Shown: in pieces, positions 45,841 to 55,302 of the stretch | Layout of the letters: each line of letters begins with the position of its first letter | Position numbering within the stretch: the stretch's first letter is position 1 | Assembly: GCA_039934615.1 (NCBI GenBank) | Contig: JBDTLV010000015.1 | Coordinates: forward strand, 1,151-65,150 | Length of the DNA: 64,000 nt | DNA from: Tahibacter sp. | Lineage (GTDB): Bacteria > Pseudomonadota > Gammaproteobacteria > Xanthomonadales > Rhodanobacteraceae | Direction: 5' to 3' | Notes under the pieces: model-generated | The model's input: the letters and a program-made list of their open reading frames with translations, nothing else | Told to the model about the DNA's origin: nothing | The model's database searches: none | Made by a program: the position numbers and the translations under genes

Positions 45841-46413
45841 ATGCTCGCACGTATCGTTCTTGCCACGGCCATTTCCCTTGCTGCAGCCTCGTCGCAGGCC
45901 GCGGACAAATACAATTTCGAAAGCTCACACAGCCACGTGATTTTTTCGTGGAACCATTTTGGCTTCTCCAACCCGGTCGCGCGCTTCGATAAATTCGACG
46001 GCGAGCTGATGCTTGACACGGCCGACCTCACCAAGTCATCGGTCTCGGTCACGATTCCGATCGACAGCATAGACAGCGACGTAACCAAGCTTGACGACCA
46101 CCTCAAGAGCGCGGATTTCTTCGACGCAGCCAAGTTCCCGACTGCAACGTTCAAGAGTACCAAGGTGGAAAAAGCCGGCGAGCACGGCTTGAAGGTCAGC
46201 GGTGACCTGACCATCCACGGCGTGACCAAACCTGCCGTACTCGACGTGACGATCAACAAGATCGGTGAGCATCCAATGGCGAAGGATCCGTCCGCGGGCT
46301 TTGACGCGACGACCACGATCAAGCGGACCGATTTCGGCATCGGCAAGTACGCGCCGAACGTCAGCGATGAGATCAAGATCCAGATCACGACGGAAACGCA
46401 CAAGGCAAAATAA
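45841..46413 (+). CDS. yceI: YceI-family periplasmic polyisoprenoid-binding protein
   Basis: ATG 45841 with signal peptide MLARIVLATAISLAAASSQAA. Also seen are SHSHVIFSWNHFGFSN, GDLTIHGVTKP and the C-terminal beta-barrel pattern. Confidence 0.85.
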   Translation: MLARIVLATAISLAAASSQAADKYNFESSHSHVIFSWNHFGFSNPVARFDKFDGELMLDTADLTKSSVSVTIPIDSIDSDVTKLDDHLKSADFFDAAKFPTATFKSTKVEKAGEHGLKVSGDLTIHGVTKPAVLDVTINKIGEHPMAKDPSAGFDATTTIKRTDFGIGKYAPNVSDEIKIQITTETHKAK

Positions 46414-46431
46414 GCGGCATTGGCACAAGAG

Positions 46432-46458
46432 ACGGGGCGTCACGCGCCCCGTTTCGGT
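46432..46458 (+). terminator. putative terminator after yceI
   Basis: ACGGGGCG (46432-39) pairs with CGCCCCGT (46445-52) and is followed by TTCGGTT. The T-tract is weak. Confidence 0.5.
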
Positions 46459-46827
46459 TCCACGGCCGCCCGGGCGTTTGCTGTCAGGACTGGCGCGCCT
46501 GCTCTGCTGCGCTGGCAGGCGCCACATCGAAGCACAGATTCTGCAGTGTGACGATCGGACCGAACGCAGGTTCCGGCCGCGAGTCCGATCGGCGTTCCAT
46601 GCCGAGGCCAAGATTCGCCGATAGCATTCCCCCCGTCACCTTGACGCCGGCGAACGGATCGCGCCATGGCGATCGGCTACATCGCCAACGCTTGCGATGT
46701 GCGACACGCGCCGAAAGGGACAAGGTCGCATAGCCAACCAAATAAAATTGCCGTAAAGTTACCCATCTTGCTGTTGTGCGTGCGCCAATCCGATCGGCGC
46801 CGCCGCATCCGTCTACCGGTGGCGACC

Positions 46828-49800
46828 ATGCTGGACTCGGTCAGGGCGCGCGACACGGGCGCAGACGCATTTCATTTTGGCGACTGGCTGGTGGTACCAG
46901 CGCAGAACCAACTGCGGCGCGGCGACCTGTCGCGCACGCTGGAGCCACGCGTAATGTCGGTGCTGTGCCATATGGCCCGGCATGCCGGGCAAGTGGTCAG
47001 TAGCGAGGACTTGCTGCGTGGCTGCTGGGCCGGTACGTTCTACGGCGACAATCCCGTGCACAAAACCGTTGCCGTGCTGCGGCGTGCGCTCGGCGAAAGC
47101 ATCGCCGCTCCGAGCTACATCGAAACCATCCGCAAGCGCGGCTATCGCGTATGCGCGAACGTCGTGTTTACCGATGCGAGTCTGGTCGAGCCCGCCGCGG
47201 GTTCGGCTCGTGCATGTCCGTTTCCCGGATTGAGCGCATTTTCCGCGAACGATCACGCGCTGTTTTTTGGCCGCGCGCGCGCCATCGCAAAACTGCTCCA
47301 GGCGGCCGTCGTGCAAGCCAGTGCCGCCGTGCGCTTTGTCCTGCTTGTCGGCACCAGCGGTAGCGGAAAATCATCGTTGTTGCACGCAGGGTTGATTCCG
47401 CTGCTCACCCAGCCCGGCGGCAGCGGTGGAATTCGTGCGGTCGCGGTCGCCAGCTATCGTGCCGGTGGTGGCGACTCGCCACTGTCGCATCTGGCGGACG
47501 CGTTGCTGCAGTGGAGCATTGCGCAGCGTCCGATATTTCTTCCGGTCGAACGCGAATCGCTGATTGAAGTGCTGCGTCGTGATCCGAACGCCCTGGAGCG
47601 CCGCATTGCCGATGCGCTCGCCCGTTCCGATGCGACCATGCCTGCCGGCGTCGATTCCCGAGTCCTGCTGATCGTGGATCCGCTGGAGGCGCTGCTCAGT
47701 GCCGCGAGCGATGGCGAGGCGATATTCGCCGCGTTGGAGGCCATGGCGCGCTGCCCGCAGGTTCTGTTGCTCGCGGCGTGTCGCAGCGATTGTTTTCCCG
47801 CGTTGCTTGCGAGCGCTGCGGCCGCGCCGCTACTCGCAGAAGGCGCGCATGTGGATTTGTGGGCGCCGTTACGCGGCGAGCTGGCACAGATGATCCGTCG
47901 TCCTGCGCAGTCGGCGGGGCTTAGCTTCGGACGCGATACCGCCACACAGGTTCGCCTGGACGATGCGCTGCTTGACGACGCTGCCGACGAACCGGGTGCC
48001 CTGCCTCTGTTGCAACATGCGTTGCGCGAGCTCTACGAGCGCGTAGACGGTCACCACGAACTGTCTTTTGCCGCCTATTTGCAAATGGGGCGTCTCAGCG
48101 GAGCCTTGGCCCAGCGCGCGGAAAGCATATTCGACGGTGTCGATGACGACGCGCGCGCGAGCCTGTCTGGTGTGCTTGAACGAATGATTCACCTGGCAGA
48201 CGAGTTCGAAGGTGCAGCGTTCGGACTGGCCGTGCCATTGCGAGCCTTTGACGAAGGTCCGGCGCGTCGGCTCGTCGGCGCCTTGGTCGATGCGCGATTG
48301 TTCACCACCGAGCTGGTCGCGAACGAGCCGGTGGTGCAGGTCGCGCACGAAGCGCTCTGGCGCGTCTGGCCCCGAGTCAGCGAATGGGTCGCCGGCAATC
48401 GCCAACTATTGCGCGCACACGCGCGTTTGCGTGCGCTGGCGACTCGCTGGAACAGCGAGTCGCGTCGCGCGGACTTTCTGATTCCTCCTGGCGCTCCGTT
48501 GCAGGAAGCTGAGCATGTCTGGACCACGATACTTGCCAGGCTGGAGGAACCGGAGCAAGCCCTCGTGCTGGCATCGAGAGCGCGTGAACATCAACGCGAG
48601 CGGCGACGGCGTCTGTCGTTTGCCGTCGTCGCCGTGCTGGCGCTGGCGGCATGCACCGCGGCGATCGCTGCCTGGCAACTGAAGGCGCGTGCGGAACAGG
48701 AACGCGCCGGAGCAGAGCGTCTGGCTGGCTACATGCTCGGCGAAGCGACCGACCGCCTGCGTCCTCTGGGGCGACTGGACATACTCGACGGCATTGCCGG
48801 TTCGGCGCTGGCCTATCTGGAGTCCTCGGCTGCCGATCCTGCCGATCCCGAGCGCATCGCCCTGCGTGCCGACGGCCTCCTGCAGATCGGTGAAATCCGT
48901 CTCGTCAAGGGCGATACTGCGGCCGGCAATGACGCATTCATAAAAAGTACAGAATTAACTAAAATCGGATTGATGCGTCACGCTGAAAATGCAGATTTGT
49001 TGCGGGTGAATGGCAAGGGACACTACTGGCTGGGTTACGAAGCGCTGCAGCGGCGCGACTACGCCAGCACGCGGACTGAATGGACTGCATACCTGGACCG
49101 TGCGCGGCACCTCATGGATGTGCAGCCGGACAATCCGGACGCATGGATCGAGCTCTCCTACGCGCACAACAATCTCGGCACGCTTGCATTCCGTCAACAC
49201 GACCTGCCGACCGCCGGGACGGAATTCGCCGAATCGATCGCGTTAAAGAGACGCGTGATCGATCGGCGCAGTGACGATGCCGGCGCCTTGCTCGAATTGG
49301 CCGACAGTTTGTCCTGGTCGGCCAATGTGCAGGACAGTCGCGGCGACCTGCGCGGTGCGCGAGCGCTGTACGCGGAATCAGCACAGACGATCGGCCGTGC
49401 CGGTGCGCTGCGCGAAAGCGATCCTGATCTCGAACATCGGCACGTTGTTGCCGATTTCCAACTGGCACAGGTATCGCTTGCGTCCGGCGAGATGGCCATC
49501 GCTCGCGCTGCGATCGACGCTGCCCAAGCGCGCATCGTCAAGCTGGTGCGGCTGGAGCCGGCCAACCTTTCCTGGCAGCGTGATCAGGCCTACGCCTATC
49601 TGCAGAGAGTGACGTTCGATCTCGCCGAGTTGCCCGATCCCGAAAGCGCACGTCAGAACGATGCCGCAATTTCCATTTTATCCAAACTGGTCGAGCGGCA
49701 GGCAGGAAACGCGGACTGGGCGCGGCTGCTGGGCCTGGCTACTCTGCAACGTGCAGCGCTGGCGGCGCGCGAACGGCGCGTCGGCAACGCGCGCCGCGAT

Positions 49801-50151
49801 CTTGATGGCGCCAAGGGACTGCTGCTGCCGCTGATCGCGACCCGGCCGGATGACGCCCTTAGCCGCGCGCTCGCAGCGCGCACCGAATTGCTGCGCGCCG
49901 AGCTTGCGGATGATGCGGCGGCGTCACGGATGGCCATCGATGCGGCTGTGCAGTTGCTTAAAGAAGTGGCCCCCGTTTCGCACGATCGCCGCGTGCTCGA
50001 TCCATGGGTGCGGGCCCTGACGGCGGCCGGACGTATCGCCGATGCCGAAGCACCGCTGCGTGAATTGCTGGCGATGGAATATCGCCAGCCTGGATTTGTA
50101 AACTACTACACTCGTTACCTGGGAGAAAAGCGCGATGGCAAACAACGATAG
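46828..50151 (+). CDS. giant signalling protein: CadC/OmpR-type winged-helix DNA-binding domain, STAND-class P-loop NTPase (nSTAND1-like), single TM helix and about 490-aa TPR-like helical repeat region
   Basis: ORF 46666 trimmed to ATG 46828, giving 1107 aa. The wHTH is FGDWLV.P..N.L.......LEPRVMSVLCHMA...G.VVS.EDLL..CW......DNPVHKTVAVLRRAL.....YIETIRKRGYRV. It is followed by PFPGLSAFSANDHALFFGRA, Walker A GTSGSGKS (47350-47373), VLLIVDPLEAL and VAHEALWRVWPRVSEWV. Next come RERRRR and the TM helix LSFAVVAVLALAACTAAIAAWQL (48613-48681). The remainder is helical repeats. Confidence 0.8.
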   Translation: MLDSVRARDTGADAFHFGDWLVVPAQNQLRRGDLSRTLEPRVMSVLCHMARHAGQVVSSEDLLRGCWAGTFYGDNPVHKTVAVLRRALGESIAAPSYIETIRKRGYRVCANVVFTDASLVEPAAGSARACPFPGLSAFSANDHALFFGRARAIAKLLQAAVVQASAAVRFVLLVGTSGSGKSSLLHAGLIPLLTQPGGSGGIRAVAVASYRAGGGDSPLSHLADALLQWSIAQRPIFLPVERESLIEVLRRDPNALERRIADALARSDATMPAGVDSRVLLIVDPLEALLSAASDGEAIFAALEAMARCPQVLLLAACRSDCFPALLASAAAAPLLAEGAHVDLWAPLRGELAQMIRRPAQSAGLSFGRDTATQVRLDDALLDDAADEPGALPLLQHALRELYERVDGHHELSFAAYLQMGRLSGALAQRAESIFDGVDDDARASLSGVLERMIHLADEFEGAAFGLAVPLRAFDEGPARRLVGALVDARLFTTELVANEPVVQVAHEALWRVWPRVSEWVAGNRQLLRAHARLRALATRWNSESRRADFLIPPGAPLQEAEHVWTTILARLEEPEQALVLASRAREHQRERRRRLSFAVVAVLALAACTAAIAAWQLKARAEQERAGAERLAGYMLGEATDRLRPLGRLDILDGIAGSALAYLESSAADPADPERIALRADGLLQIGEIRLVKGDTAAGNDAFIKSTELTKIGLMRHAENADLLRVNGKGHYWLGYEALQRRDYASTRTEWTAYLDRARHLMDVQPDNPDAWIELSYAHNNLGTLAFRQHDLPTAGTEFAESIALKRRVIDRRSDDAGALLELADSLSWSANVQDSRGDLRGARALYAESAQTIGRAGALRESDPDLEHRHVVADFQLAQVSLASGEMAIARAAIDAAQARIVKLVRLEPANLSWQRDQAYAYLQRVTFDLAELPDPESARQNDAAISILSKLVERQAGNADWARLLGLATLQRAALAARERRVGNARRDLDGAKGLLLPLIATRPDDALSRALAARTELLRAELADDAAASRMAIDAAVQLLKEVAPVSHDRRVLDPWVRALTAAGRIADAEAPLRELLAMEYRQPGFVNYYTRYLGEKRDGKQR

Positions 50152-50524
50152 TGTGCCGGCCGAACTGGTCATCGAAGTCGATGTGCAGGCAACCCCGAAT
50201 TTTGGCGGCAACACCCCGGACCGTCGCTACCTGTATTCCTTCTCGCCCGACGTCTCGATCGTGCGCAAGAGCAGTACGCTGATGGTCTACCAACTGAGCA
50301 AGAACACGCGCGAGGACCTGGTGATCAGTGGCATCTACACCAATGACGGACGCTACCAGATTGGTCCCCCGCAGATCGCGGCCGACGCCCGATCGGTTTC
50401 CTTCACCAATCGCAATTCCCAGCAGATGCTGATCAACGTGATGTTGCAGGTGACCGATCGCACGAGCAACTCGCTGATCCACGCCGACCCGCAGGTGCTC
50501 AATGAACCGGAAGTGCCGGATTGA
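50135..50524 (+). CDS. 129-aa beta-strand-rich cytoplasmic protein (possibly the family annotated as DP-EP), translationally coupled to the STAND gene
   Basis: ATG 50135 lies 17 nt inside the upstream gene, with GGGAG at 50121-50125. There is no signal peptide or TM segment. It has alternating beta-like segments (ELVIEVDVQ, YLYSFSPDVSIV, LMVYQLS, LVISGIYT, VSFTNRN, LINVMLQVTD). The C-terminus is ADPQVLNEPEVPD. The family name is recalled from memory and unverified. Confidence 0.65.
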   Translation: MANNDSVPAELVIEVDVQATPNFGGNTPDRRYLYSFSPDVSIVRKSSTLMVYQLSKNTREDLVISGIYTNDGRYQIGPPQIAADARSVSFTNRNSQQMLINVMLQVTDRTSNSLIHADPQVLNEPEVPD

Positions 50525-50849
50525 AGGTTGCTGCGCCGAGGCGTCGTCGGGCGGCCGGCTCGGTCGCTTGATTCCGGCAGAGATGGATGAATGGCCAAGA
50601 TTGGCAATGGCAACGGACCTCGCTGCGCGGTCCGTGGGCTAAGGTCGATGTGCGACGTTCGCAGACCGTACAATGCCGGTTGTCGCTCGCCGTGTGGATG
50701 ATCCTGTTCCAGCATTCCGGATGCGGCATCGGCAGGCCGCCCGTTCCGACAGGATGAAATGTGAATAAAATTCTTGGTTTATTTGTGGATAATAGCCCGG
50801 ACGCGGCTCCGCTCAGCGGTTCGCAGACAGATCAGGTGGCGGACTATCG

Positions 50850-51596
50850 ATGCCCCTGATTCGCTTGCTGTGCACCGCGCTGACGTTTCTGACGCGGCTG
50901 CCGGTTGCGCGCTGGAGCCACGCGGAGCCCGAACGCCTCGCGCAGTCGGCCAGCCTGTTTCCCCTGGTTGGCGCCATTGTTGCGGCCGTGGCGTGCGCTG
51001 CGGCATGGTTGGGGCATGCTCTGTTGCCAGCGGCGCTCACGCCCTGGTGTGCCTTGCTGGCGGGAATCGTGGTGACCGGCGCATTTCACGAGGACGGTCT
51101 CGCTGATACGGCGGACGGACTCGGTGGCGGTGTCACGCGCGAACGGCGCCTGGCGATCATGAAGGACAGTCGCCTGGGCACCTATGCGGCGGTGGCCTTG
51201 GCACTCGTACTCAGCGGCAAGTATTTAGCACTCGCAAGCCTGTCGATGCCGAGACTCTTCGCAGCTCTGTATGTGGGACACGTGATGGCACGCTTCAGCG
51301 TGTTGCCCCTGGCCGCGTGGTTGCCGTATGTCCGCGATTCGGAGGCCGGCAACAAGCCTGTCGCGGATGGCATAGGCGCGCGAGAAGTGCTGCTCGGCTC
51401 CGTCTTGACCGCTGCCCTGGTGGCACCGTTCGGACTGACGGCGATCGCCTGCATCGTGGCAAGCCTCGTCGTGATCGTTCTGGCAGCGCTCTATTTCCGC
51501 AGTCAGCTCGGGGGCATCACCGGCGATACGCTGGGCGCGGCCAACCAGTGTGTGGAGCTGTGCTGTTATCTGGTTTGCGCCGCGCTGGTGTTCTAA
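50850..51596 (+). CDS. cobS: adenosylcobinamide-GDP ribazoletransferase (cobalamin-5-phosphate synthase)
   Basis: 248 aa and multi-TM. It has the N-terminal FLTRLPV motif, AFHEDGLADTADGLGG and the late GGITGDTLGA. Confidence 0.85.
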   Translation: MPLIRLLCTALTFLTRLPVARWSHAEPERLAQSASLFPLVGAIVAAVACAAAWLGHALLPAALTPWCALLAGIVVTGAFHEDGLADTADGLGGGVTRERRLAIMKDSRLGTYAAVALALVLSGKYLALASLSMPRLFAALYVGHVMARFSVLPLAAWLPYVRDSEAGNKPVADGIGAREVLLGSVLTAALVAPFGLTAIACIVASLVVIVLAALYFRSQLGGITGDTLGAANQCVELCCYLVCAALVF

Positions 51597-51856
51597 GCAG
51601 TCCATCTCACACGCCAGCTGCGCAAGGAATAGTAGCCTGCTGCAGGGTTGTTTCGTTTTGAATCGGGACGATACTCTCGGCCAATGCGGTCCCACCGAGT
51701 GGACCGCGGATTGATCACCGTGACGACGTCGGCAAGCTTCACCGCAATACTGAGCAGCGATCGTGGGCCCATCCGTGCGTGTTCGTGCGCCACGGTCACA
51801 GGGTGGCAACGAAGAGCGAGAACATCGAATCGATGTCAGGCAGGGATCATGCGCTC

Positions 51857-52426
51857 ATGAGCTTTGATCGACGCGTGCTAGCTTTGTGGTTGCTTTTCGC
51901 GTGTTGTGCACAAAGTTTTGCGCAAACCTGCGCACCGTTTGTCGAAGAGCAGGCCGCCTGGTCCACGGCGATGTTCCGCCCGCATTCCAACGGCATGCAA
52001 TCGTGCACCGTCAGCGAAGAGGTCTATCGCGCGGTCGTGCGCGACTGGCTGCGAGATCGCGCGCCGGCTTTGCCTCCATTGACGTCACTGTCGCTGGGAC
52101 GGGCCGAAAATTTTCCGTGGCTGTCTCACTATCTGGCGGACTCGGCTTTGCAGAGCGCGAACTGGCGAACCCGCGTGCTGCGCGCGGGAGCCGGCGAGCA
52201 CAACCAATTTGTCGCTGACCTTCTGTCCGAGCCGGCGATGCTGCAGCGACTCGACGCGCCGTTCGCGGAAAGCGCGTATCGCGTGGTAGGTGCCTCCGTG
52301 GAGAAAGTCCTCGCGGGCAAGGCCAGCGTGTACGCGTCCGTCAAGACCGACGCGACATGGAAGGTTCCTTTCGATGCGCAGGTCTGGTTGCGACTGGCAT
52401 CGCGAAACCCGGCAGGAGGGCGGTAG
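51857..52426 (+). CDS. hypothetical exported protein
   Basis: ORF 51779 trimmed to ATG 51857 (MSFDRRVLALWLLFACCAQSFAQ, a signal peptide). No family recognised. The start is uncertain; ATG 51833 is also possible. Confidence 0.5.
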   Translation: MSFDRRVLALWLLFACCAQSFAQTCAPFVEEQAAWSTAMFRPHSNGMQSCTVSEEVYRAVVRDWLRDRAPALPPLTSLSLGRAENFPWLSHYLADSALQSANWRTRVLRAGAGEHNQFVADLLSEPAMLQRLDAPFAESAYRVVGASVEKVLAGKASVYASVKTDATWKVPFDAQVWLRLASRNPAGGR

Positions 52427-53969: not shown

Positions 53970-54179
53970 ATGTCCAGAACCCAGTCGAACGCGGCCACAC
54001 TACTGCCCGCGAATGCGCAAAATCGTTACGAAGTGACGCGCGCCGACCTGCCCTTGTCATGCCCGATGCCCGGTATGCGTCTGTGGGACGCGCATCCGAA
54101 GGTGTATCTGGCGATCGAAGATGAGGGTGGCGAGTCGGTCTGCCCCTACTGTGGCGCGCATTACGTACTCAAAGCCTGA
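53970..54179 (+). CDS. small zinc-finger (zf-CHCC, NDUFS6-like) protein
   Basis: ORF 53922 trimmed to ATG 53970, giving 69 aa. It has LSCPMPG...WDAHPKVYL........CPYCGAHYVL, with a C..(n)..H and CxxC arrangement. Confidence 0.65.
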   Translation: MSRTQSNAATLLPANAQNRYEVTRADLPLSCPMPGMRLWDAHPKVYLAIEDEGGESVCPYCGAHYVLKA

Positions 54180-54189
54180 CCGGGGCGAC

Positions 54190-55302
54190 GTGCAGGGGCG
54201 TCGGCTCACGGTATTGCAATTGCTGCCCGCCCTGGAGACGGGCGGGGTGGAGCGATCCACGCTTGAAGTCGGTGCGGCGCTGGTCGCGGCGGGGCATCGC
54301 TCGGTCGTCGTTTCCGGCGGCGGACGCCTGGTACCGCAGCTGGTCGCGGCTGGCAGCGAGCACATCCGCATGAGCATCGGCCGCAAGTCGCTGCTGACCC
54401 TCCGCCACGTGGGGGGGCTGCGCCGGCTGATCGCCTCACTGGCTCCGGATATCGTGCATGCACGCTCGCGTTTGCCGGCGTGGCTGGCCCACTACGCGTT
54501 GAAGGGACTGACCGCACCACGCACGCATCTGGTGACCACCGCGCACGGTCTCAACTCACCCGGACGCTACAGCGCGATCATGACGCGGGGCGAGCGGGTG
54601 ATCGCGGTCTCGCATACCGTGCGCGACTATCTGATCACCCACTACGAAATCGATCCGGCACGCATCGTGGTGATTCCGCGAGGCATCGATACCGCGGAAT
54701 TTCCCTACGGTCATCGCCCCGATGAAGAATGGACGTCGCGATTTTTTTCGCAATTTCCACAACTGGCCGGTGCACCGCTGCTGACCCTGCCAGGGCGTGG
54801 CACACGTCTCAAAGGTCATCATGACGCCATCGAACTGCTTACCGCACTGAAGTCGCGGGGCATCGAAACGCGATTGTTGCTGCTCGGGGCTCGCGAGGCG
54901 ACGCGCAGCGCCTACGTCAGTGAGCTCGAACAGCTGGCGCGCGATCGCGGGGTCGCGGATTGGATGGCGATCAGCGAACCGCGCGACGACGTACGCGACG
55001 TTTTCGCCGCGAGCGCGCTGGTGCTGCAGCTGTCCACCAAACCGGAAGCGTTTGGCCGAACGGTCGTCGAGGCGCTCGCACTGTGCAGACCGGTGCTCGG
55101 CTACGCCCACGGTGGCGTCGGTGAATTGTTGTCCGAGCTGTATCCCGCCGGTCGCGTGCCTTACGGCGACAACGGCAAACTGATCGAGCGCGCTGCGGAA
55201 CTGCTGCGCCTCGCGCCCGCCATTCCGCTGCTCGATCGCTACCATCTCGCCGACATGCAGGCGGCCACGCTGGCGCTGTATGGTGAGATTGCGGGCGCTT
55301 GA
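54190..55302 (+). CDS. GT4-family glycosyltransferase (LPS core type)
   Basis: ORF 54121 overlaps the zinc-finger gene, so I prefer the in-frame GTG at 54190 (VQGRRLTVLQLLPALETGGVERST, a typical GT4 N-terminus). The E(x7)E region is EAFGRTVVEALA. The start codon is uncertain. Confidence 0.75.
   Translation: MQGRRLTVLQLLPALETGGVERSTLEVGAALVAAGHRSVVVSGGGRLVPQLVAAGSEHIRMSIGRKSLLTLRHVGGLRRLIASLAPDIVHARSRLPAWLAHYALKGLTAPRTHLVTTAHGLNSPGRYSAIMTRGERVIAVSHTVRDYLITHYEIDPARIVVIPRGIDTAEFPYGHRPDEEWTSRFFSQFPQLAGAPLLTLPGRGTRLKGHHDAIELLTALKSRGIETRLLLLGAREATRSAYVSELEQLARDRGVADWMAISEPRDDVRDVFAASALVLQLSTKPEAFGRTVVEALALCRPVLGYAHGGVGELLSELYPAGRVPYGDNGKLIERAAELLRLAPAIPLLDRYHLADMQAATLALYGEIAGA

Follow-up and report, generated by a model that had tools for sequence, protein, structure and literature searches.

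Ligand-triggered, ATP-dependent multimerization that activates transcription is the logic expected of MalT, AfsR, and GutR, and MalT is additionally under the control of separate inhibitor proteins (MalK, MalY, and Aes). These proteins of E. coli, Streptomyces, and B. subtilis, respectively, are cited as non-immune STAND regulators (PMC13581612). The nSTAND1 conflict NTPases described so far bear effector-associated, TIR, caspase, trypsin, or FGE/CLec domains and are found in conflict-type neighborhoods (Kaur, Iyer, Burroughs, Aravind 2021, eLife 10:e70394; PMC8195603, PMC10907252). SO1698 of Shewanella oneidensis, a protein of the DP-EP/DUF1888 family, is represented by 12 crystal structures (PDB 3N55, 3NJF-3NJN) deposited under the name "aspartic peptidase." The title of the corresponding article, as listed in PMC11655445, presents a DUF1888 member as a self-cleaving, self-assembling endopeptidase (Osipiuk et al. 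2012, J Biol Chem 287:19452), and the use of DP-EP/DUF1888 as a self-cleaving tag has been attempted before (PMC11655445). Here, we analyzed a locus in a 64,000-nucleotide stretch of Tahibacter sp. DNA (GCA_039934615.1, contig JBDTLV010000015.1; the whole stretch is hereafter called the window) that combines features of these systems. It is composed of a large gene (46828..50151, + strand; 1107 amino acids plus stop) encoding a membrane regulator with a winged helix-turn-helix (wHTH) domain, an nSTAND1 NTPase, a predicted transmembrane (TM) helix, and TPR-like repeats, followed by a small gene (50135..50524, + strand; 129 amino acids plus stop) encoding a beta-sandwich protein of the DP-EP/DUF1888 family. 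This arrangement is a conserved two-gene operon in many proteobacteria. We give roughly even chances to the interpretation that the large protein is an envelope-sensing, NTP-gated membrane transcription factor, the cytoplasmic half of which works with a self-processing DP-EP partner.

The large gene was defined by the list of open reading frames (ORFs), Pfam matches, colinearity with homologs, and an AlphaFold2 (AF2) model. Its product is colinear from end to end with 17-60 homologs, and the model, which like the conservation analysis was based on an alignment of 60 homologs, has a mean predicted local distance difference test score (pLDDT) of 88.7, with values below 50 in three segments alone (residues 1-11, 117-122, and 611-622) and a dip around residues 600-630. 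A first-pass annotation of this DNA had divided the ORF into a wHTH, an nSTAND1, a TM, and a TPR part, and this division was borne out by Pfam, hydropathy, AF2, and Foldseek. The N-terminal residues 37-107 (46936..47148, + strand) are an OmpR/PhoB/CadC-type winged-helix DNA-binding domain, matching Pfam Trans_reg_C (PF00486) with 50.5 bits against a cut-off of 26.2, and the model of residues 15-114 displays a beta-alpha-alpha-alpha-beta hairpin pattern. The best NCBIfam match of this domain was the CadC N-terminus (NF007540), which aligned with residues 14-115 only and scored 69.5 bits, so that the large protein did not reach the CadC equivalog level (cut-off of 400). With a mean p-distance of 0.44, the wHTH is the most conserved domain of the large protein.

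It is followed by an nSTAND1 NTPase module (residues 131-548; 47218..48471, + strand) that matched PF20703 over positions 1-378 of the 379-position profile (270.8 bits against a cut-off of 27.1, E 3.7e-80) and that comprises a P-loop, a Walker B motif, a helical domain containing LPLLQ, and a winged-helix subdomain whose VAHEAL motif carries an invariant His. In the Walker A motif, GTSGSGKS (residues 175-182; 47350..47373, + strand), G175, S177, G178, G180, and K181 are invariant in the 60 homologs, as are E287 of Walker B, R319, D321, LPLLQ, and H507 of VAHEAL, while D284 is nearly so. Since Walker A, Walker B, R319/D321, LPLLQ, and H507 are all kept in these homologs, the NTPase looks competent. 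No BTAD, NB-ARC, or LuxR domain was found in the large protein with Pfam (E<=1 for BTAD and NB-ARC), and NACHT scored just 16.6 bits. Between the NTPase and the membrane lies a helical arm (residues 549-595; 48472..48612, + strand) that ends in RERRRR and was modeled by AF2 as helices 556-567 and 574-611; W541, L551, G555, and L558 in this region are invariant in the 60 homologs.

The arm leads into a predicted single TM helix (residues 596-618, LSFAVVAVLALAACTAAIAAWQL; 48613..48681, + strand), assigned from hydropathy and conserved position. Its Kyte-Doolittle 19-residue mean is 2.46, and in 58 of the 60 homologs the hydrophobic maximum falls at the same alignment columns (mean of 2.33), while the sequence there varies. 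Lys and Arg residues flanking the segment average 5.4 on the N side versus 3.7 on the C side, and AF2 rendered the segment as a low-confidence helix, placed between two confident halves and packed on no domain. The remainder of the protein (residues ~640-1107, ~460 amino acids; 48745..50148, + strand) is a TPR-like alpha-solenoid, in which AF2 modeled residues 650-1106 as ~22 paired helices of ~20 residues each (pLDDT of ~95). Foldseek searches of the PDB with this region retrieved the TPR superhelices of OGT, consensus-TPR proteins, and LGN, as well as an archaeal STAND-TPR protein, and Pfam TPR_1, TPR_2, TPR_10, and TPR_12 matches were present in homologs. Since the wHTH and the NTPase must be cytoplasmic and are followed by one conserved TM helix, the solenoid is predicted to be a periplasmic sensor, which would give the protein a CadC/ToxR-like, N-in topology.

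The large gene shares its last 17 nt with the small ORF, which is preceded by a GGGAG Shine-Dalgarno sequence (50121..50125, + strand) located within the large-gene end, 9 nt ahead of the small-gene ATG. The encoded protein ends in ...HADPQVLNEPEVPD and is devoid of an N-terminal hydrophobic stretch, as are 65 of 67 family representatives, and AF2 folded it into a 9-strand all-beta sandwich (pLDDT of 94.1). The overlap and the Shine-Dalgarno sequence, as well as the lack of an export signal, the all-beta character, and the C-terminus, had all been read correctly in the first-pass annotation, as judged from the sequence and the model. The Foldseek search that it had proposed for this protein identified the SO1698 fold, so the small protein is not an orphan: the top 12 hits were all SO1698, wild type and mutants (probability of 1.00, E 9e-9 to 1e-5, TM-score of 0.61-0.76), at a sequence identity of 11-16%, and the next neighbors were MakD and MakC (TM-score of 0.52). 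An exhaustive profile search was needed to sample the family, as word-indexed searches with the small protein alone (3 relatives) and with the 67-sequence profile yielded only 3-7 relatives. We obtained 131 cluster representatives of 110-135 amino acids, 67 of which entered the profile. This profile matched the SO1698 PDB chains named "Peptidase" (E 3.8e-8), and 16 of the 67 representatives matched Pfam DP-EP (PF08985; best E-value of 3.9e-5). The small protein of the window gave no PF08985 match at E<=10 in our Pfam scan, though a precomputed PF08985 match is on record, and DP-EP matches are recorded on the homologs P0200 and P0173. Overall, the fold, the family profile, and the C-terminal Asp-Pro motif described below suggest that the small protein belongs to a divergent branch of the DP-EP/DUF1888 superfamily. 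The possibility that it is a chance ORF in a high-GC shadow frame was rejected, given a family present in more than 70 genomes and the pLDDT of 94. Separately, 6-15 partial repeats matching the small-protein profile were seen in the giant proteins P0182 (1996 amino acids) and P0254 (5731 amino acids), and in P0208 (617 amino acids) and P0251 (724 amino acids), which suggests that the DP-EP-like beta-sandwich may also occur as a tandem module.

The family consensus is ...GGN..G.Y.Y.F.P...DGRS...N...LI...V.D....CDPQV.N.P. According to PDB descriptions and chain lengths, SO1698 cleaves itself between Asp116 and Pro117, because the wild-type chains have 119 residues and end at Asp, as do those of the Y26F, K98A, P115A, and Q118A variants, while the D37A, S114A, D116A, and P117A chains are 128 residues long. 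By family alignment and these chain lengths, the corresponding bond in the window protein is Asp118-Pro119 (codons GAC CCG; 50486..50491, + strand), which we predict to be autoproteolytic. Among 149 distinct members aligned at this site, Asp is present in 147 and Pro in all 149, and the segment that follows has Q or E in 143 members, N in 144 (N123 in the window protein), and P in 141 (P125). Cleavage would detach the C-terminal 11 residues, PQVLNEPEVPD (50489..50521, + strand), the PQVxNxP core of which is conserved; AF2 assigned residues 120-123 to a beta strand. Ser114 and Pro115 of SO1698 are replaced by His116 and Ala117 in the window protein, and the Pro115 position is occupied by Cys in most of the family. 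Self-cleavage at D118-P119 is thus plausible but unproven for this protein.

The pairing of the two genes was assessed in the best 80 of at least 549 confirmed large-gene relatives, which came from a scan of one genome per species. Using a hidden Markov model (HMM) of the small family, a same-strand small gene immediately following the large one was detected in 65 of these loci at first and in 70 after two iterations. Two of the other ten end at a contig edge, three carry a divergent ORF (137-139 amino acids, ending FDPQVGN or FDPETQN), two have a PixA gene, and three showed nothing recognizable at this place. In the reverse look-up, all eight small homologs (23-50% identity to the query) were found directly after a large gene or its C-terminus: the genes ahead of them encoded Trans_reg_C-nSTAND1 proteins of 1056-1102 amino acids or, on short contigs, were ORFs matching the C-terminal end of the large-protein profile. 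The spacing could be derived for 63 pairs with a callable start, the start calls being heuristic. Start and stop overlapped in about 26 pairs (18 as ATGA; extreme overlap of -35 nt), and 19 further pairs were 3-26 nt apart, a pattern typical of stoichiometric partners. Hence, the expectation of the first-pass annotation that a small beta-sandwich gene is kept beside wHTH-STAND genes held in 70 of 80 loci. However, its description of the partner as "obligately co-translated" was overstated, as gaps extend to 337 nt; translational coupling of the pair is common but not obligatory.

The pairing extends to Shewanella, the genus of the solved DP-EP family member. At a Shewanella locus (L079), a small protein close to SO1698 (E 4.2e-45) is encoded directly after a wHTH-nSTAND1-TPR gene. 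Furthermore, in strain MR-1 the gene whose locus number is adjacent to SO1698, SO1699, has been given the annotation "transmembrane transcriptional regulator" (PMC7253198) and is reported to be induced in an arcA mutant (PMC2262068). We infer that SO1699 is itself a wHTH-nSTAND1 protein. A mirror-tree analysis of co-evolution by domain gave weak, rate-confounded correlations (rho of 0.21-0.41) and was not used as evidence. In other genomes, a second full module (L060) or an extra small gene upstream (L024:3932-4354) was seen.

These findings led us to the following model. The periplasmic TPR domain would bind an envelope or extracellular ligand, and the TM helix, together with the helical arm, would carry the signal to the nSTAND1 NTPase. 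The latter would then swap ADP for ATP and oligomerize, like MalT and AfsR, thereby gathering wHTH domains at the membrane for the binding of repeated DNA sites and the activation of transcription, comparably to CadC/ToxR dimerization. The DP-EP protein, made in step with the regulator, might bind its cytoplasmic half as a checkpoint or co-factor, a role comparable to that of MalK/MalY/Aes on MalT or of ToxS on ToxR, and a slow, pH-sensitive self-cleavage at Asp118-Pro119 might mature or irreversibly reset this partner. The model in its most specific form describes a NOD/STAND oligomerization switch that a periplasmic TPR receptor would operate through a single TM helix, with direct transcriptional output. 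A self-cleaving DP-EP protein would gate this switch, its cleavage serving as a licence or timer that is irreversible and perhaps dependent on pH; we put this form forward as a tentative proposal that may well be wrong.

Several observations weigh against this interpretation: (i) in 18 of the 63 pairs the genes are 49-337 nt apart, which leaves room for a separate promoter; (ii) in two Lysobacteraceae metagenome-assembled genomes, the DP-EP gene is replaced by a PixA inclusion-body gene (PF12306, E 1e-47; L039:3618-4169(+) and L038:9438-10091(+)); (iii) tandem small genes follow one large gene in three loci (L018:9342-9710/10147-10524, L021:9321-9689/10089-10466, and L056:9273-9662/9730-10107); (iv) S114, which is needed for SO1698 cleavage in that its mutant stays uncleaved, is His116 in the window protein, and the equivalent of D37, another residue whose mutation leaves the SO1698 chain uncleaved, is ambiguous (D39 is nearby); (v) upstream of the large gene no regulator target sites or direct repeats were found, just a weak 10-nt repeat and the hairpin after yceI described below; and (vi) with a periplasmic TPR domain and a cytoplasmic small protein, the classic STAND logic, in which sensor repeats bind the partner, cannot apply.

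The PixA replacement and the tandem small genes are as compatible with an "output" gene as with a "partner" gene. Together with the roughly 18 of 63 pairs having gaps wide enough for a separate promoter, they speak for an alternative in which the DP-EP protein is the regulated product and the large protein is a dedicated, autoregulated activator of a self-assembling storage, inclusion, stress, or surface-active beta-sandwich. The word "self-assembling" in the title of the SO1698 article, as it appears in a reference list, points the same way, and so do the weaker fold neighbors MakC and MakD, which are accessory proteins of a toxin operon. However, the ATGA and other short overlaps in about 26 pairs tie production of the small protein to that of a low-abundance regulator, which would be odd for a bulk product, the 1:1 adjacency persists down to ~25% sequence identity, and the small protein carries no export signal. 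We therefore consider this alternative rather unlikely, though worth keeping in view.

A different relation between the two proteins would arise if the TPR solenoid recognized the small protein or the PQVxNxP peptide cleaved from it, either because the solenoid is not periplasmic or because the small protein reaches the TPR side otherwise. The system would then sense its ligand in the classic STAND manner, and self-cleavage would produce that ligand. TPRs are typical binders of peptides and proteins, and the sensors of MalT, AfsR, and Avs-type STAND proteins are built from them. The PQVxNxP core that follows the cleavage site shows almost no variation, and the distances between small proteins are best tracked by those between TPR domains (joint regression weight of 0.68), though this value is rate-confounded. 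In addition, at the locus L081 a distantly similar downstream protein carries a signal peptide: a 183-amino-acid ORF (L081:10176-10727(+)) about 830 nt past the large gene has an apparent signal peptide and loosely resembles the small family (GRYVLDYS...), without an HMM match. Against this stand the 23-residue hydrophobic segment itself, with its Kyte-Doolittle value of 2.46, its position kept in 58 of 60 homologs, and its Arg-rich N flank, as well as the AF2 model, in which the segment packs on no domain. Likewise, SO1699 was annotated as "transmembrane" by the MR-1 annotators, and the small family lacks a signal peptide. Such a receptor function of the solenoid is accordingly improbable in our judgment.

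The distribution and the surroundings of the module fit a resident signaling system. More than 1146 clusters of large proteins matched at E<=1e-10; almost all of them are ~1100 amino acids long and carry an identical set of Pfam domains, and they go by no names other than "winged helix-turn-helix domain-containing protein" or "nSTAND1 domain-containing NTPase." The closest named relatives among the best 80 are from Dokdonella (58% and 49% identity). The large gene was found in Lysobacterales (Dokdonella, Rhodanobacter, Dyella, Luteibacter, Lysobacter, Xanthomonas, Tahibacter, and Aquimonas), in Burkholderiales and relatives (Janthinobacterium, Duganella, Massilia, Rugamonas, Collimonas, and Chitinimonas), and in other Gammaproteobacteria (Rheinheimera, Shewanella, and Pseudoalteromonas), and the module is present in many species of Xanthomonas, Lysobacter, and Oxalobacteraceae. 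A scan of 72,556 plasmids gave one full-length large-gene match, on a 1-Mb replicon of Niveispirillum (Alphaproteobacteria) where the pair is present, and no full-length copy of the module was detected in 50,697 phages. In the window, the module is chromosomal and has housekeeping neighbors, with genes for GlnE, an ELM1-family protein, a nitroreductase, and YceI upstream, and for CobS and a Yip1-domain protein downstream. Searches of PADLOC-DB v2 produced no significant match, with the large protein scoring 18.2 bits against mad8 and 14.2 bits against mad3 (P-loop fragments) and the small protein yielding nothing.

These data bear on the immune or conflict framing of the first-pass annotation, which they do not support, and on the related explanation in which the nSTAND1 protein would be an NLR-like sensor of invaders in an anti-phage or conflict system with the DP-EP protein or wHTH-driven transcription as the effector. 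Even though nSTAND1 was defined amid conflict systems (PMC8195603, PMC10907252), STAND NTPases widely serve as phage sensors (PMC13581612), and a PIN-domain gene adjoins the pair in seven loci (L001-L007), we regard this explanation as very improbable and rejected it as the leading one, given the PADLOC result, the housekeeping neighbors, the near absence from plasmids and the lack of full-length copies in the phages scanned, a spread over many species that is not patchy, an N-terminal "effector" that is the most conserved domain, and a periplasmic sensor that would be ill-placed for intracellular phage proteins. The accompanying statement that no nuclease, TIR, or protease effector is present stands with regard to nuclease and TIR, but for protease it is not strictly true in view of the kinship with DP-EP/SO1698. 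Elsewhere in the window, a GT4 glycosyltransferase gene (54121-55299(+)) also scored on the Pfam GT4-conflict family PF20706 (37 bits against a cut-off of 26).

As for the boundaries of the module, directly after yceI there is a hairpin (46429..46455, + strand) with an 11-bp stem (91% complementary) and a 5-nt loop followed by TTTC. It is likely a terminator that separates yceI from the regulator gene, and it suggests that the module has its own promoter region. A promoter and terminator scan remained at background level, and no Rfam elements were found in 46000-52000. The open frame enclosing the large gene spans 46666..50151 (+ strand), and the ATG at 46828 gives the protein of 1107 amino acids. 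Because homolog starts fall near this ATG in alignments and GGTGG precedes it, we tentatively favor 46828 over the GTG at 46780. The public call for the large protein (P0005, 1123 amino acids) uses this GTG, 48 nt upstream of the ATG.

Clustering of all ORFs neighboring the pair revealed no universal third gene. In 11 loci, the pair adjoins a gene for a protein of 470-607 amino acids (e.g., L001:2448-4271(-), L014:3843-5666(-), L082:10516-11991(+), and L027:11143-12642(+)). In the Dokdonella-like closest relatives this gene precedes the pair and points away from it, and in Lysobacter and Xanthomonas it follows at a distance of 0.5-1.5 kb. The encoded protein had no Pfam match and no sequence match in the PDB and does not occur in the window; it might be the product of a target gene or a third component. 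Further downstream, a small XRE-type HTH gene (PF01381) occurs at L024:10714-11091(+), at L081:9760-10107(+), and in 15 other Lysobacteraceae loci, in the sub-clade where the small genes diverge most and the gaps are widest.

The Trans_reg_C, nSTAND1, TPR, and DP-EP families have all been catalogued previously. In the literature searched, we found neither an account of wHTH-nSTAND1-TM-TPR proteins as a functional class nor a statement that DP-EP/DUF1888 proteins are dedicated operon partners of such regulators. The claim of the first-pass annotation that no example has been characterized accordingly holds, within that literature, for the large protein but not for the small one, as the SO1698 half is characterized. 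STAND/NOD proteins are usually soluble cytoplasmic sensors, and a membrane placed between the repeats and the NTPase would show that the switch can be driven from outside the cell. The family has hundreds of members and occurs in many proteobacteria that live with plants or in the environment, among them Xanthomonas, Lysobacter, Dyella, Janthinobacterium, and Shewanella. Its conserved pairing provides the first functional context for DUF1888/DP-EP, a family with a solved structure and unusual self-cleavage chemistry. If true, a DP-EP-gated transmembrane STAND switch would be the first biological function assigned to DUF1888/SO1698, 14 years after the structure. Both S. oneidensis (SO1699/SO1698) and Xanthomonas allow direct tests of the pair.

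Compared with the known systems, the large protein shares PF20703 and C-terminal super-structure-forming repeats with the nSTAND1 conflict NTPases, but differs from them by its DNA-binding N-terminus, its predicted TM helix, its housekeeping neighbors, and the lack of a defense-model match. With MalT, AfsR, and GutR it has in common a DNA-binding domain, a STAND NTPase, and C-terminal TPR-like sensor repeats. However, those regulators are soluble and have no DP-EP partner, whereas here a TM helix is predicted between the NTPase and the sensor repeats, and the NTPase is of the nSTAND1 rather than the MalT or NB-ARC clade. The large protein does not correspond to the SARP/AfsR type either, which is defined by a wHTH-BTAD-NB-ARC arrangement. 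As in ToxR/CadC regulators, an N-terminal OmpR-type wHTH is present, and its cytoplasmic location, a single TM helix, and a periplasmic sensor are predicted; the gene order resembles that of ToxR-ToxS, TcpP-TcpH, and VtrA-VtrC, in which a small beta-rich partner gene lies immediately downstream and often overlaps. It departs from the ToxR/CadC scheme in having an NTPase switch of ~420 residues and a helical arm between the wHTH and the membrane, and a TPR solenoid as its predicted periplasmic domain. Unlike ToxS, TcpH, and VtrC, the DP-EP partner has no membrane anchor or signal peptide and is predicted to be cytoplasmic. Finally, the small protein and SO1698 have only 11-16% identity and differ at Ser114/Pro115 (His116/Ala117), yet they are of similar length (129 and 125 amino acids), both lack a signal peptide, and share the fold and the C-terminal Asp-Pro...N.P motif, and the Shewanella relative of SO1698 occupies the same genomic position, directly after a wHTH-nSTAND1-TPR gene.

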